NCBI GenBank assembly: GCA_951406725.2
Contig: OX597818.1
Span: 117,738,001-117,802,000 of the forward strand
DNA: 64,000 bases
From: Octopus vulgaris
Taxonomy: Eukaryota
Reading direction: 5' to 3'
In this document: positions 6,690 to 63,850 of the stretch, one piece after another
Numbering within the stretch: position 1 is the first letter of the stretch
How the letters are laid out: each line of letters opens with the position of its first letter
Program-made: the position numbers and the translations under genes
Notes under the pieces: model-generated
Told to the model about the DNA's origin: nothing
The model's input: only the letters and a program-made list of their open reading frames with translations
Databases searched by the model: none

Positions 6690-7471
6690 TCTATAATTAC
6701 TTTGATACTTAGGTGGGTGGAGTTAGTTACTTGCTGGATGCTCTCCATTACGCTCCTATCAGTTTCTAAATTACCGTTACTAGAGTCCGTCTTAACTATG
6801 ATATTAATGTCACCTACATACCTACTGTAGAGCAGAAGAGTTATGTACTGTTCTGGTAAGAATTGCTTAAGTTTTCTGCCGCACCAGGTCATGAAGAGGG
6901 CGGCCACATCTCCAGCTACACCGACACCAATGGCTGCACCTTGAACCTGCGAGTATAGTGTTTTTGTTAAAATTTACTATGTGGTTCTTCAAATTGGTTC
7001 TTACACTGGCCCCTATTGCATATGCAAGCATTTCTTTCACCTGATTTTTGTTCTCAGTGTCTTGGATGGATACGGTCCAGTTACTCCAGCGCTCTGGAGT
7101 GGTGCTTTTATTCACTGCTGAGGTGATTGTGGCTGGTCTTCCCCTCTGCGACCAGGTGATGTAGAATCTATTGATGTCACGGTCGTCTAAATAATCACTG
7201 TCGTAGCTTAGTCTAAGGAGGAGGCCCAGTTCCCTCGTGTTGACCTCACGGAACTCTACTTCACTCTCACAGATTACCTCAATGCATTTCTCCACAGCAA
7301 AATCTATGTCTATAGATGGGTAGAGTGAAATGACATCCATACTACCCGCTACACAACCTGTGAGATCGTTGGAGAGTTTGCAAGTACTGATTTTACTGAG
7401 GACACGCAGACATCTGGAGATATCTTTATGAGAGTCGTAACACTTGTGTGAAATGAAAAAGTTTTTAATGC
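6690..7471 (-). mobile_element. Inverted 782-bp duplicate of the PLE RT fragment at 9026-9807
   Basis: Identical 157-aa ORFs at 6867-7340(-) and 9157-9630(+); ends map 6690<->9807 and 7471<->9026. Confidence 0.92.
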
Positions 7472-8147
7472 TTTTCCAACGAAAAAGTAAGTATTAGCCT
7501 CATCACTTGACCTTCGAAAACTAACAGCTAAACGTCCCTCAAATTATTTTCTCTTGTCTGAATTAAGGAAGGATACATGTGGTAGTACACGCGTCCACAA
7601 AATGGGATTGTCAAAACTGGCATACGTATGATCATAAGGCTGGCATGAGTCTAATAAACAAAGACGATACAAGCAGCAACGACAAAATATCACAAAATAG
7701 CACAAACGACAACAGCCATTTCACGAATGGAGAAAACAAAGCCACTTTGACAATACATATAACGTACACAAAAAAAAAACTCAGTAAATTCTAGTTGTAC
7801 CATAAGCAACAAACATTTTAAAGCGTTTTCAACTTTTAACACCATTAAACAATTGGAACTAACAGTATTTGAATAATGATAAGAGTGTCAGCAGCAATGT
7901 GCAAATATCCTGGCCGAGATATAAATAAATATAGAAATTTTAAAGAATTAGAATGGAAAAAAAAATACCAGCAAAAACTTAAATATAATTATATATACGT
8001 TACAGTAAACTTGAAGAACGTCCGCAAGGATTCTATTATTTAAAGATATGATTCTCAACAATGGTACCAAAGAGAATACGAAGTAAGTGTGCCCTTACAT
8101 ACAAACATACATACACACTTATATATACCCACAAACACATAGATACA

Positions 8148-8190
<43 letters not shown>

Positions 8191-8296
8191 GTATACATAT
8201 ATACACACATAAACTCAGGCACACATACAAAGTGATATACAAGGCCGTGATAAACATACCCAGAGTGGAACAAGTCAATGACTGAATATATATATG

Positions 8297-8421
<125 letters not shown>

Positions 8422-8454
8422 TTATGTATATATATATGTATATATATATGTATA

Positions 8455-8506
<52 letters not shown>

Positions 8507-8944
8507 CAGATAGACACATACAAAATCATATACATATGAAGCCGAGAGAGTAAGAAAGAAAGAAAGAAAGAAAGAAAGAAAAAAAGAAAGAAAGAAAGAA
8601 CGAAAGAAAGAAAGAAAGAATGAGAAACTGAGTATTGTTGAAGTTGCAGTCATTTGGGCGTCAGAGAGAATAACATGCTGCATATGTAGCTAGTTTTGTC
8701 TTTCTGCATACAAAACACTCGCGGATGAAGGCAGAAATATAGAATGATGGATTCATAGTAAAAATTTAAAACGTCCCAATGAGAGCAATTTCATCTAGAG
8801 TTCAAATTTATCTATGGCCTACCAAAACGGTAAAAGGCTGAGTTCGAGGGGCAAGTGCCTAAATATTTCATCAGTTAGTTGTTTGCCCGTTCAAAGAAAG
8901 TAGATGGAAGCGTCAAACACAATGGAATTTCAGTGGCAAGATGT

Positions 8945-9047
8945 AGATCGCTAACCACTACGCATTCTTTATTTTCTCTCCTTGTTTCCTCCTGTGTTCC
9001 TTTCTGTGGAGAGCGTAGGCTCAACGCATTAAAAACTTTTTCATTTC
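8945..9047 (+). mobile_element. Damaged copy of the CUGUNGA HHR-motif element
   Basis: ccttt-ctgtgga-gagcgtaggctc is retained but GAAA is lost; upstream pyrimidine-rich segment matches the 5105-5290 and 16885-17050 copies. Confidence 0.6.
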
Positions 9048-10800
9048 ACACAAGTGTTACGACTCTCATAAAGATATCTCCAGATGTCTGCGTGTCCTCA
9101 GTAAAATCAGTACTTGCAAACTCTCCAACGATCTCACAGGTTGTGTAGCGGGTAGTATGGATGTCATTTCACTCTACCCATCTATAGACATAGATTTTGC
9201 TGTGGAGAAATGCATTGAGGTAATCTGTGAGAGTGAAGTAGAGTTCCGTGAGGTCAACACGAGGGAACTGGGCCTCCTCCTTAGACTAAGCTACGACAGT
9301 GATTATTTAGACGACCGTGACATCAATAGATTCTACATCACCTGGTCGCAGAGGGGAAGACCAGCCACAATCACCTCAGCAGTGAATAAAAGCACCACTC
9401 CAGAGCGCTGGAGTAACTGGACCGTATCCATCCAAGACACTGAGAACAAAAATCAGGTGAAAGAAATGCTTGCATATGCAATAGGGGCCAGTGTAAGAAC
9501 CAATTTGAAGAACCACATAGTAAATTTTAACAAAAACACTATACTCGCAGGTTCAAGGTGCAGCCATTGGTGTCGGTGTAGCTGGAGATGTGGCCGCCCT
9601 CTTCATGACCTGGTGCGGCAGAAAACTTAAGCAATTCTTACCAGAACAGTACATAACTCTTCTGCTCTACAGTAGGTATGTAGGTGACATTAATATCATA
9701 GTTAAGACGGACTCTAGTAACGGTAATTTAGAAACTGATAGGAGCGTAATGGAGAGCATCCAGCAAGTAACTAACTCCACCCACCTAAGTATCAAAGTAA
9801 TTATAGATTACCCCACTACGCCCCCCCCCCACCAACAATAGACTTCCCGTCCTTGATACTGAACTTTGATTAAAGACTGAACAATAGTGTGCAGCTCCTT
9901 CACTCCTATTACATGAAACTCATAGCTTCGAAATATATTGTTCCCAAGAACTCAGCTTTGTCTCACAACATGAAAATTAACATACTGATAGCAAACTTAG
10001 GACAACGAACAAAGTGTCCCCACTATGAAAACTCTATGAAACGAATATACTTGTACGGAGCTTCATGCCCCGCATGCAATTCTCTGGATATGATCAGAAA
10101 GATAGGGTTCGAGTATACAAGGGCACTAGAAAGAAATTAGAGAACGTTATATGAAATGATACCAGTGGTACCTGTCCTAGATATAGAGACAAAGAATGGA
10201 ATAGGATACAAAGAACTTGTGTCAAAGCAAACAGGATGAACACGTGGTATAAAACCGACAAATATCAAAGAGTGGTGTTTGTAGAGGCCATAGCTCATTG
10301 AGAACTAGGCCGTAGCTTTAGGAAAGCTCTGAATGAGACCAAACTCAACATTAAGATTGCTGAAAAACCAGGAAACTCCATCAGATCAGAACTATGTAGG
10401 ACATATCACTTTGAGAATACCATATGCACCAATGATAACTGCGTGGTATGTAGGATTAACCCAGGCATTAACCGTAGAACTAGAAATGTAGTTTCCAGCA
10501 TAAGATGCATAGAATGTGCTTGTAAAGACATGAACATGATATACATAGGGGAGACATGTGGGAGCATTGCAAAACGATTAAATGAACATTTGAGACAATA
10601 TGACGACAAATAACAGTCCTCCATACTCTACAAGCATGCCAAGGACCAGCATGGAGACAACCTGGGTCAACTTGACATCCGCATTTTATCCAAACACCCA
10701 AAGGACCCAACACTCAGACAAATACAGCAGTACGTCCTCATAAATGAAACTTCTCCAATACAAAATAGGAAATATACATAGTAGATATCATACCCACAGT
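9048..10800 (+). mobile_element. Penelope-like retroelement relic: RT plus GIY-YIG endonuclease, frameshifted
   Basis: GSMDVISLYPSID (RT motif A), QVQGAAIGVGVAGDVAALFM, LYSRYVGDINI (decayed YVDD), LPVLD; from 10425 CTNDNCVVC...NVVSSIRCIEC...IYIGETCGSIAKRLNEH...LYKHAKDQH (GIY-YIG). Confidence 0.9.
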
Positions 10801-12985: not shown

Positions 12986-13347
12986 TGTGAGTATAATAAA
13001 AGCAATAACAGGAAAAGTAACATAGCGAAGCCTTGGCATCCATAATAGCAACAACAATAATGTGTGCACCGAAAATAGACTGTGAGTGAAGTATGGTGTC
13101 AGTGGTGTCAAATGTCCTCATAACAAATATGCTATTGTCAAGGATGTTGCAACACTAAGAAACCTGTATGTAATATACGTACAAACACATCGCCGCACTG
13201 CCACCCACCCACACACACACACATACACACACACACATACACACACGCACACATACACACGAAAGAATAGAAACGCATAAAGACACACATATAAGCAAGT
13301 GGCTGTGTAAGTATGCGCATAGCATTATCTGTCCGTAAGAAACCTAC

Positions 13348-13391
<44 letters not shown>

Positions 13392-13621
13392 TATAATTAA
13401 TCAATATAGGGTGGCAAGGAAAATTTTGTAGAATTTTTTTGCCACCAGCGGCCCAGTGGGAAAAAATTAAATAGTCATAGACCATTTTTAAGTTCAACAT
13501 TAACAATTAAGGAACGGCCATAATAGGCCATTCACCCACTAGAAATAACAGCCAAAGCTTCTACCGCAAATAAAGATTAATTCCGTAAACAGGAGAAAAT
13601 TAAAAAAACATTTACCCTGTA

Positions 13622-13728
13622 ATTTCTTGTACGGTATACCGTTTCATCCGCTGTTTAATGGTAAACTAACCTGATTAAATTAAATCAAGCCAATCTTCCA
13701 TAAGCCCTCAGATTCTTCAGCAAGAAAT
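13622..13728 (-). ncRNA. Type I hammerhead ribozyme (left-arm copy)
   Basis: Reverse complement of 14123-14229. Confidence 0.82.
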
Positions 13729-14122
13729 AGCTCAAGTCGGAACAGATATTTACACGAGGCATACCCAACCCTGCCAAGGCAATATCTGACCTAAAATTTT
13801 CAAATCGTCGCACTCGCGCCAAATTTATCGGCAGCAAATAAATATAAGCCGTCGATTCCAATTACGGAATTAACCAAAAAATTCATAATTAATCAATATA
13901 GGGTGGCAAGGAAAATTTTGTAGAATTTTTTTGCCACCAGCGGCCAAACCCTATATTGATTAATTATGAATTTTTTGGTTAATTCCGTAATGGAATCGAC
14001 GGCTTATAATTATTTGCTGCCGATAAATTTGGCGCGAGTGCGACGATTTGAAAATTTTAGGTCAGATATTGCCTTGGCAGGGTTGGGTATGCCTCGTGTA
14101 AATATCTGTTCCGACTTGAGCT

Positions 14123-14229
14123 ATTTCTTGCTGAAGAATCTGAGGGCTTATGGAAGATTGGCTTGATTTAATTTAATCAGGTTAGTTTACCATTAAACAG
14201 CGGATGAAACGGTATACCGTACAAGAAAT
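14123..14229 (+). ncRNA. Type I hammerhead ribozyme with extended stem II
   Basis: Stem I auuucuug/caagaaau (8 bp), core CUGAAGA (14131-14137), stem II base aucug/cggau closing a 58-nt insert, GAAA (14206-14209), stem III cgg(uaua)ccg, GUA cleavage triplet (14219-14221). Confidence 0.85.
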
Positions 14230-14342
14230 TACAGGGTAAATGTTTTTTTAATTTTCTCCTGTTTACGGAATTAATCTTTATTTGCGGTAGAAGCTTTGGC
14301 TGTTATTTCTAGTGGGTGAATGGCCTATTATGGCCGTTCCTT

Positions 14343-14439
<97 letters not shown>

Positions 14440-61900: not shown

Positions 61901-62260
61901 GTGTGGCTGTGTGGTAAGTAGGTTGTTTAGCAAGCACATCGTTCCAGGTTCAGTTCCACTGCGTGGGCCCTTGGGCAAGCGTCTTTTACCCACCAAAGCC
62001 CTGTGAGTGGATATGGTAGACGGAAGGTGAAAGAGGTTTGTCATTTATACATATATATATGTGTGTGTGTATGTTTGTGTGTCTATTTTTGTCCCCCAAC
62101 ACCGCTTGACAACCGATGCTGGTGTGTTTACGTCCGCGAAACTTGGCATTTCGGCAACAGAGCCCAATAGAATACGTACTAGGCTTACAAAGAATAAGTC
62201 CTCGGGTCGATTTTTCTCTACTAAAAGCGGTGTTCCAGCATGGCCGCAGTCAAATGACTA
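61901..62260 (+). mobile_element. SINE family A abutting the PLE
   Basis: Homology to the other copies; tail cut at the PLE junction. Confidence 0.85.
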
Positions 62261-63850
62261 AACTAAATTTAGTCGTTTGTTGTTTTTTATGCTATATTTG
62301 TTTAATATGTTTTTCATTTTGGGGCTTTGTAAGGATATTGGTAGGTTTGAATGTATGGTTTGGAACATGTTGGTAACTCCAGGGTTGTGCATGTTTATAA
62401 AAGGGATAATGTTTTCTTTGTTTTTTGTTTTGGGTGTCCTGAGTTGGTCGATGTCTAGTTTTAATGCTCTTGTGATTCCTTCTATAGGTTTAAGGGGGTA
62501 TTTTTGCTCTTGGAGGAAGTTTTTAAGTTCATCTAGTCTTATTAGTCGTATTTGTGAATCAGTTACTATGCTACATATTTGTCTTGCCATACTATATGGG
62601 ATGTTTCTTTTTGTGTGTGATGGGTGACAGGAGTGGAAATTTAAATATTGGTGTGTGTCAGTTTTTTTTGTAGTGGATGTCTGTTGTGACGATGGAGTTG
62701 TGTATTTTGATGTTGATGTCTAGGAAGGGAAGTTCGTTGTAGCTGGTATCTATTGTGAAGTTGATAGATGGATGCAGCGTATTGAGGATGTTGTGGAATG
62801 TTCGTAGGTCTTCTTCTGATCTGTTCCAAAAGATGAAGCAGTCATCGAGGTAGCGTTTCCACTTTTTCTTGATGTCTTCTTTGAAGTCGTGTTCGAAGAC
62901 TTTCCCTATTTCATCGTATAGTTTGTTCTCCAGGAAACCCATCACCAGGTTGGCATATGAAGATGCGAAGTTTGTACCCATAGCCGTGCCTTTTATCTGT
63001 CGGTATGTCTTGTTGTTGAATGAGAATGTATTTTCTTCGAGTATTAATTGGGTGGCTTGGGTGATAAAGTTTGTCTTGAAGCGTTCATCTATAAGTTCTC
63101 TGTATTTTTCTATCGATTGTTTTATTGCTTCTAGACCTAGGGTGTGTGGTATGTTTGTGTATATATTTGTGACATCAAAGCTTGCAAGTATGGTGTTTTT
63201 CGGGACTGTATTTGGAATGTGTGTGAGGAAGTCTATGTCATCCCTTATGTAGCTTGGTATCTGTGGGCATAAAGGTTTGAGGGGTATATCTATGAAGTGG
63301 CTTAGTTGTTGTGTTGGTACCTGGGGTCCTGCCACTATTGTTCTCATTGTGAGGTCTGCAGGCCTTTGTATTCTTATATAGTGGTTCCTCTGTTCCTTTA
63401 TGGCTCTCTGTATTTCAGAACTTTTATGAATTTTAGGTAATCCATAAAAATTGCTTTCTTTGGTTCTTGAGTTGTATAGATAGTCTTTTTCCTTATCTGT
63501 AAAGGAGTCCTGGTATTTATTAACTAAAGTTCTTATTTTTTTTATTGTTGATTTCTCCGGTGGTGTTGGTTCCTCTTTATAGTATGTCTGGTTGTTCAGT
63601 AACTCCAGTATCTTTTCTTTGTCGTAATCTGTATCCATAATTACTATTGCTCCACCTTTGTCAGCTTCTTTTATAATGATTGACATGTCATTTTTCAGTT
63701 TTTGTAAGGCTTGTTTTTCTCCTCTGCGGGAGATTCTGTTTGCATTTGTGTGTGTGGAGAGGGAATTTGGATATTGTCTCTATGTATGCGTCAAGGTGTT
63801 TGTCACTTCTCGTGTAAGGGCTGAAATGGGATTTTTTTCTTAAGATTGAG
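62261..63850 (-). mobile_element. Penelope-like retroelement (Poseidon/Neptune-type RT), truncated at both ends
   Basis: RT ORF at 62658-63686; frameshift at the T-run near 62662-62669; continues TDTHQYLNFHSCHPSHTKRNIPYSMARQICSIV; no GIY-YIG left. Confidence 0.93.
62658..63686 (-). pseudogene. PLE reverse transcriptase core, 342-aa open segment
   Basis: IIIKEADKGGAIVIMD, FYGLPKIHK, LASFDVTNIYTNIPH, YRQIKGTAMGTNFASSYANLVMG, WKRYLDDCFIFW, LPFLDINI. Confidence 0.92.

Follow-up and report, generated by a model that had tools for sequence, protein, structure and literature searches.

A type I hammerhead motif with a long, unbranched helix II in an octopus repeat that resembles non-LTR retrozymes and was probably copied by Penelope-like enzymes

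Non-LTR retrozymes of metazoans, as described in PMC7229834 and in a preprint (bioRxiv 10.64898/2026.07.22.740005), are low-GC, non-coding tandem repeats measuring a few hundred bases with a type I hammerhead ribozyme (HHR) in each unit, and their mobility has been proposed to depend on Penelope-like elements (PLEs). The repeat analyzed here resembles them in these respects and also resembles a mussel example that is described there as being without the usual loop–loop contact residues. It differs in unit length (475–497 bp, compared with 170–400 nt in PMC7229834 and 51–972 bp in the preprint), in a helix II of 46–69 nt that is not canonical, in a 4-bp stem III that forms a 10-nt palindrome, in a predicted Watson–Crick pseudoknot and in very regular two-armed insertions. 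HHRs in the pLTRs of Hydra-clade PLEs (PMC8557442) are likewise of type I, and those elements share with the repeat a (TA)n target, an inverted 5′-truncated copy, a “tail” and, in file S2 of that paper, 10.1/11.1 pairs other than G-C, with U·U being common. Their published loop 2 measures about 3–10 nt and their tail 30–40 bp, whereas the tail here is ~110 bp and the repeat has no ORF. The same file already tabulates PLE HHRs with U·U, C·A and A-U closing pairs and with a loop 2 of 29–35 nt. Among these are HHRs of spike-moss PLE-X1 elements, marked non-canonical, with a loop 2 of 29 and 35 nt, and PLE-X1_sTam has the A-U closing pair that is found here; however, they are shorter, they belong to EN-minus plant elements, and the table describes neither a rod nor a pseudoknot for them.

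Two further systems are related by shape. Watson–Crick pairing between the peripheries of stem I and stem II was described by Perreault et al. (2011, PMC3088659), where such pseudoknots are given for ~40% of HHRs and reported as activating at low Mg2+, with U·U tolerated at 10.1/11.1. In the repeat, the helix II partner would instead be an internal loop beneath an 18-bp rod, and the setting is a eukaryotic repeat; the text of that paper available to us contains no such case. The discontinuous CLEC2 hammerhead (reviewed in PMC6155905) also combines a large insertion in one helix with an otherwise normal core, but it is a single-copy type III ribozyme in a 3′ UTR, with 150–1500 nt inserted in helix I. 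The element class, the ribozyme class and the pseudoknot type are thus all known and the locus is not a new system, although it extends the known range of shapes of natural hammerheads. The element is unreported in the literature on octopus and cephalopod hammerheads, retrozymes and non-autonomous Penelope elements that was available to us; supplements to PMC7229834, PMC4209133 and the bioRxiv preprint could hold similar motifs. We consider it probable that a ~490-bp non-LTR retrozyme, likely copied into (TA)n by PLE enzymes, holds the type I hammerhead of this locus, and that helix II is a long unbranched rod whose inner loop is predicted to pair with bases 5′ of stem I, thereby bracing the active fold.

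The window is the whole stretch of Octopus vulgaris DNA that was analyzed, 64,000 nt in length (positions 117,738,001 to 117,802,000 of contig OX597818.1), and all coordinates without a contig name refer to it. A motif scan in which the length of helix II was left free found all elements of a type I HHR in place at 14123–14229 on the plus strand, with CUGANGA, GAAA and UH in order and stem I open-ended; folding and covariation were used as further evidence. Stem I (AUUUCUUG/CAAGAAAU, 14123–14130/14222–14229) is followed by the core CUGAAGA (C3 to A9, 14131–14137) and by a basal stem II (AUCUG/CGGAU with one G·U, 14138–14142/14201–14205) that encloses 58 nt and whose closing pair is A10.1 (14138) and U11.1 (14205). 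GAAA (G12 to A15.1) occupies 14206–14209, the palindromic stem III CGG-UAUA-CCG pairs 14209–14212 with 14217–14220 around a UAUA loop, and A14221, the last base of the GUA site, is residue 17, so cleavage would be expected 3′ of A14221. The core, the 8-bp stem I, the basal stem II, the GUA triplet, the cut position and the palindromic stem III had all been called in a first-pass annotation of the letters alone, and all were recovered by the scan. In 100 dinucleotide shuffles of the window the scan gave no strict match and 0.02 loose matches per shuffle, and the fold z of the hammerhead region was −4.66. Because the locus is an inverted repeat, a second, identical copy was found on the minus strand of the left arm (13622–13728, read from 13728 to 13622). 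The hammerhead itself, as a core with three stems, is real.

Stem II had been described in the first-pass annotation as branched, with two sub-hairpins in the insert. Folding of the locus, folds of the family members and covariation instead gave a single unbranched helix II of 68 nt (14138–14205, plus strand), in which the basal stem is followed by a 7×7 internal loop (14143–14149/14194–14200), an 18-bp rod with an A·A mismatch (14150–14168/14175–14193) and an apical loop, UAAUUU (14169–14174). The first proposed sub-hairpin (ggcuugauu/aaucagguu) is the top of this rod, with pair probabilities of 0.93–1.0, and the second (guuua/uaaac) had a pair probability of 0.0. A branched structure was calculated at −20.5 kcal/mol versus −36.7 kcal/mol for the rod fold and is thus ~16 kcal/mol worse. 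Helix II was a single hairpin in 35 of 35 and 23 of 24 distinct family sequences (58/59 unbranched), and in alignment A2 the rod was paired in 99% of cells, as against 82% for the second sub-hairpin, which had no covarying pair. Fold probability, energy, family folds and alignment therefore rule out the branched insert, whereas the accompanying proposal of a distinct architecture with a long helix II is supported. Helix II ranges from 46 to 69 nt among the family sequences. No member with a short helix II occurs among the 59, a count that is biased since the search patterns demanded 45–75 nt. The A-U closing pair, also pointed out in the annotation, is present at this locus in place of the usual, though not obligatory, G10.1-C11.1, but as a distinguishing trait it does not hold, since relatives have G-C, A·C, A·A and U·C: in 35 sequences the 10.1/11.1 pair was A-U (17), A·C (13), A·A (2), G·U (1), A·G (1) or G-C (1), and in 24 sequences of the K type it was G-C (16), U·C (3), A-U (2), A·A (1), G·U (1) or G·A (1).

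Rfam returned no hammerhead match for the window motif at either the gathering score or E ≤ 10, and searches with the inverted repeat gave only sub-threshold matches to miRNA-type hairpins. We infer that the length of helix II is responsible for the miss. Loop 2 is limited to 3–10 nt in the published PLE descriptor (supplement to PMC4209133), and the prediction that standard short-loop descriptors would overlook the motif was thus correct. The premise attached to it, that most PLE and retrozyme HHRs are minimal with a short stem II, is contradicted by the published descriptions, in which minimal PLE HHRs have a reduced helix III with a longer-than-usual helix II of 7–8 bp (PMC4209133) and retrozyme HHRs are called canonical (PMC7229834). 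The practical consequence is a blind spot: in this one genome, several hundred copies escape both Rfam and the published PLE descriptor.

The host is a young, non-coding tandem element of ~490 bp. Its youngest family, A, has units of 484–492 bp with the best copies 99% identical, and related families (67–95% identity) have units of 475–497 bp; spacing is 484–497 bp. GC content is 35–37% per unit, below the 45–50% bound used for retrozymes, the longest ATG-initiated ORF is 64 aa in the three monomers checked, and no LTR pair is evident from the layout of the unit. At other loci the units stand in tandem, each with a type I HHR, and by its sequence features the element fits the description of a non-LTR retrozyme given in PMC7229834 and the preprint. 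Exact patterns gave 194 family A ribozymes in the 2.8-Gb genome. A pattern with a second stem III matched 54 times and one for a third set of stem III variants 457 times; reversed-pattern controls gave 0 for all three counts, and 24 of 29 new loci from the group of 457 fit the monomer profile. Patterns for other variants of stem III or stem II found nothing new in the genome. Related sequence was present in runs of five organisms. Repeated hammerhead-like motifs with a long helix II that the monomer profile did not match were also seen at six loci (L073, L081, L085, L071, L090 and L077). Contig C1 holds a family A insertion (195860570–195868536) with 16 intact-core units among the matches listed, 3 minus and 13 plus, an array consistent with rolling-circle copying or with later array growth.

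At the window locus, a 5′-truncated right arm of 398 bp (13948–14345, plus strand) ends at a terminus designated T1, ~124 nt past the predicted cut. The left arm (13396–13945, minus strand) has a length of 550 bp, made up of a single unit of ~491 bp and a further ~59 bp, and is inverted head-to-head; it ends at a second terminus, T2 (CCCTATATTGATTAAT), ~235 nt past the predicted cut. The two halves of a (TA)n microsatellite target flank the arms at 13347–13395 and 14346–14430. The arms are 99.5% identical, with 2 untemplated bases at their junction, and both carry G14202, a base seen at this locus alone (A stands there in 50 of 52 copies); because of this identity and the shared private base, it is likely that a single insertion event produced both. 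In 36 insertions examined, 26 were two-armed and head-to-head (3 of them unresolved) and 10 were single-armed, and each of the 23 resolved two-armed insertions had one T1 arm and one T2 arm (23/23). T1 and T2 lie ~110 nt apart, 60 of 62 arms end in TA-rich microsatellite, and 3′ ends are fixed at T1 or T2 with 5′ ends scattered. For an anole PLE, two start sites of reverse transcription and a “tail” have been shown (PMC11167929), and PLE insertions are described as having an inverted truncated copy and a preference for (TA)n (PMC8557442). The two-termini pattern matches these features and is a Penelope-like signature, and the inverted 5′-truncated copy or partial tandem is the form expected of a non-autonomous PLE. 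Note that each arm at the window locus carries one ribozyme, so no unit-length RNA could be released there, and read-through of both arms is predicted by folding to bury the ribozyme in a duplex.

Pairing in the stems was counted on MAFFT alignments that were not fitted to the structure. Alignment A2 had 96% of stem cells paired with 8 two-sided changes and A3 had 94% paired with 12, 4 of them in the rod, kinship being ignored in both; slid controls gave 25–47%. The structure used for A2 counted one extra stem III pair that is possible solely in a dimer. Covariation within the insert, proposed beforehand as a check, was found in part: two-sided rod changes occur between families E and F (A3), but in families A–D/G (A2) the rod has one-sided wobble changes only. 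Across families down to ~67% identity, compensatory changes were found in all three helices, and contigs of related organisms showed paired changes at 14130/14222 and 14142/14201 and a stem III switched to another palindrome. The core stays intact while N7 varies (A, U or C) and stem III changes wholesale, yet remains palindromic; note that the family search patterns themselves demanded the core. Together, the intact core and the compensatory changes point to selection at the RNA level. They also bear on the reading of the repeat as a satellite or MITE-like sequence amplified as DNA, with the hammerhead a dead relic. Long tandem arrays such as the 16 units among the matches listed at the C1 locus would suit that reading, as would the fact that cleavage is known here by prediction from sequence, but 5′ truncation at random points, 3′ termini that are fixed, the T1/T2 rule in 23 of 23 insertions and the compensatory changes around an intact core make it very improbable.

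Stem III had been called self-sufficient, which its energetics do not favor. In the window the hairpin was calculated at −2.9 kcal/mol and the palindromic duplex at −18.8 kcal/mol; across sequences the ranges were 0 to −2.9 and −15 to −19 kcal/mol, respectively, and a perfect 10-nt palindrome was present in 26 of 35 sequences. With so weak a hairpin and so strong a duplex, by analogy with PMC4209133, stem III would favor dimeric cleavage in tandem units.

The internal loop of helix II is 4–5 bp away from the core, at the usual place of loop 2, and its 5′ strand is complementary to bases just 5′ of stem I. From covariation, a pseudoknot of 3–6 bp is predicted on the plus strand between 14117–14122 (core AGC, 14119–14121) and 14145–14150 (core GCU, 14146–14148). 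The strands read AGC/GCU at this locus; most families have GGC/GCC and family E has GGU/ACC, with 5–6 bp possible in several. Using 15 lineage representatives, with loop columns from MAFFT, the central 3 bp were paired in 44 of 45 cells (42 Watson–Crick) and C14147 was invariant (15/15). Permutation gave P 0.014–0.022 for the central 3 bp, with kinship ignored and the idea drawn from most of the same lineages; a four-pair window gave P 0.005–0.009 and a six-pair window P 0.02–0.09, again with kinship ignored. In five K-type loci taken after the idea arose, 14 of 15 central cells were paired. Locus L228 breaks one pair. Double changes from G-C to A-U (family A) and from C-G to U-A (family E) were each accompanied by a wobble form in a sister family. 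Earlier pseudoknot tests that were anchored differently, by a blind anchor, were non-significant, with P 0.07 in one and, in another where 3 of the 52 records were mis-anchored and 9 unanchored, P 0.13–0.23. A downstream invariant AGGG considered as the partner of the loop CC showed no covariation by eye, is placed by folding in a paired part of the following hairpin, and was rejected. On balance we lean towards a pairing of the internal loop with bases 5′ of stem I, and this predicted pseudoknot is what the present analysis adds. The earlier guess that the insert provides a tertiary contact thereby gains support in one specific form, a loop at the foot of the insert able to pair with that 5′ strand.

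The same 5′ strand is also predicted to form a competing hairpin (14115–14136, plus strand), in which AGC pairs with the core residues G14130, C3 and U4 and which would block the active fold. Its probability was 0.86–0.98 in constructs with upstream sequence. Family A in its natural context had a stem I probability of 0.00–0.16, at a cost of 3.7 kcal/mol, and is predicted to be mostly inactive; these folds were performed with ViennaRNA, which models neither pseudoknots nor dimers. Predicted stem I probability was 0.09 for the construct suggested in the first-pass annotation (14100–14260) and 0.96 for one spanning 14118–14235. Since the longer construct is predicted to misfold, a negative cleavage result with it would not refute the ribozyme. 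If true, these two folds would account for the ability of a helix II 3–4 times as long as usual to dock on stem I.

The same ribozyme and retrozyme could instead carry the rod as a separate protein-binding or regulatory module (for docking of the PLE reverse transcriptase, as an ADAR substrate or as a stabilizer of circles), with the GG/CC match incidental and cleavage dependent on a dimer or on protein. The rod apex, UUUAAUUUAAU, hardly varies between families that are ~70% identical, stem III stays palindromic, one PLE HHR is reported to be protein-assisted (PMC11167929), and A-to-G-like runs occur in RNA contigs, all of which would fit. We nevertheless judge such a module unlikely, given that helix II varies from 46 to 69 nt with the length of the rod, that the fixed termini are found away from the rod, at 124 and 235 nt downstream of the cut, and that the pseudoknot covaries at P of about 0.015 (kinship ignored).

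ORF-bearing Hydra-type PLEs in the same genome have pLTR HHRs with a helix II of 16–21, 39 or 67–70 nt and closing pairs other than G-C; the clade was called by eye, from a comparison of motifs with Hydra-1_Obim in the PMC8557442 supplement, and a Pfam search with the Hydra-type ORF gave no match. Because these close relatives span 16–70 nt in helix II, the arm is expandable. That range would also suit a neutral origin of the rod, as an AT-rich expansion of loop 2 by hairpin growth or slippage that is kept paired only to spare the core, and so would an apex composed of UUAAU repeats in varying number and the many rod changes that are wobble only. Neutral growth seems improbable to us in view of the conserved apex and internal-loop residues, the two-sided rod changes between E and F, and the missing short forms among the 59 sequences, the last being biased by search patterns that demanded 45–75 nt. 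It is compatible with the pseudoknot and touches the distal rod alone.

The motif CCCT-W2-3-ATT[TG] ends the L177/L176 Hydra-type lineage at 7 of 16 junctions, compared with 31 of 36 retrozyme junctions and, among the other (TA)n junctions, 2 of 1840, these classes partly containing the motif by definition. In this lineage, which has intact frames of ~840 aa, the terminal motif resembles T2. A monomer profile (nhmmer) detected no nucleotide homology to the fetched Hydra-type UTRs beyond that motif; among PLE clades, the survey covered Hydra-type elements. Long-helix-II HHRs and the shared terminal motif make Hydra-type PLEs the likeliest mobilizers, and whether they are the partner of the retrozyme seems to us evenly poised. 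The 23/23 rule of two termini, together with intact Hydra-type ORFs in the same genome, makes the mobilization of an animal retrozyme testable in vitro. ORFs beside four insertions (L046, L019, L101 and L174) were considered as parts of the element and rejected as neighbors or interrupted hosts.

We tentatively propose, while regarding it as somewhat less than an even prospect, a PLE-linked hammerhead subtype in which loop 2 has turned into an internal loop engaged in a Watson–Crick pseudoknot, a freely extendable rod stands above it, and the partner strand 5′ of stem I switches from this activating pairing to an inhibitory hairpin over the core and back. It would be common to the retrozyme superfamily and, as regards the long helix II, to Hydra-type PLEs. 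Were this true, descriptor surveys would undercount PLE ribozymes, possibly including Naiad “half-core” cases, and a compact retrozyme, an intact PLE and two defined priming sites would be available for reconstituting mobilization. File S1 of PMC8557442 gives the label HHR_half_core to Naiad_Ovul and to seven further Naiads, with core halves 35–50 nt apart, and these may be long-helix-II hammerheads. Six short motifs of the element were absent from the text of that paper's supplement searched for similarity to a Naiad 3′ end.

Element contigs were present in 3 of 4 RNA or presumed-RNA runs, a count based on contigs only; X20, the sole run on record as RNA, had 0. In run X8 (presumed RNA), one 521-nt contig closes on itself with a step of 492, which fits a circle or a tandem. 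Contigs of runs X12 and X14 compared with window positions 13396–13947 had loose ends and A-to-G runs on either strand, as expected of ADAR hyper-editing of dsRNA from inverted arms; alleles or subfamilies could also give such runs. Copies with a 5′ end exactly at the cut were not enriched, with 4 matches representing 3 events, two of them with microhomology; a control site gave 15 matches, and 6 of the 10 loci fetched look truncated. For marking of the cut site by truncated copies, the comparison is 3 events versus about 6 at the control site. Arms ending ≤16 nt past the cut numbered 7 of 58 where ~2 were expected, by a hand count with 15 pattern-selected rows dropped, a range chosen post hoc and some alignment artefacts. 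One PLE put to the test was able to insert without cleavage by its HHR (PMC11167929). The proportion of predicted retrozymes that prove active can be low, with only 1 of 9 from Xenopus cleaving in vitro (bioRxiv 2026.07.22.740005).

On the reading that we prefer, a retrozyme copied by PLE enzymes, tandem loci would be transcribed and the ribozyme would cut after GUA, with help from the pseudoknot and, probably, from dimers that pair through the stem III palindrome; in the subfamily of the window, the competing hairpin over the core would hold cleavage back. Unit-length RNA would then be circularized or the RNA left multimeric. A PLE protein with reverse transcriptase and GIY-YIG domains, most likely Hydra-type, would nick both (TA)n strands, and cDNA would be primed at T1 on one strand and at T2 on the other. 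The outcome would be a pair of arms that face outward and meet at their truncated 5′ ends, and the locus in the window would be a product of such two-site priming.

Other PLE sequences were seen in the window and in the genome. The window has a PLE of its own at 6690–10790, in which the free-helix-II scan found no HHR. It is a frameshifted element with a C-terminal EN (6690–7474, minus strand, and 9023–~10790, plus strand), whose inverted 5′ copy of 785 bp is 100% identical and lies 1.5 kb away. A PLE-type reverse transcriptase fragment of 373 aa (Pfam RVT_1, E 1e-8) occupies 62258–63779 on the minus strand. Elsewhere, nine loci (L137, L140, L142, L144, L145, L147, L151, L153 and L177) represent a young Hydra-type family with open frames of ~830–860 aa, a linker rich in Asn, an upstream HHR whose helix II is short, and no match in Pfam. 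Two Hydra-type lineages (L176 and L178–L197; L104, L125, L155 and L156) have pLTR HHRs with a 67–70-nt helix II, and in the former stem I is weak and the U·U closing pair conserved in 20 of the 20 copies shown. By eye, locus L198 is a 2.75-kb tandem segmental repeat whose Hydra-type pLTR bears a long-helix-II HHR and which also contains a tRNA-like sequence.
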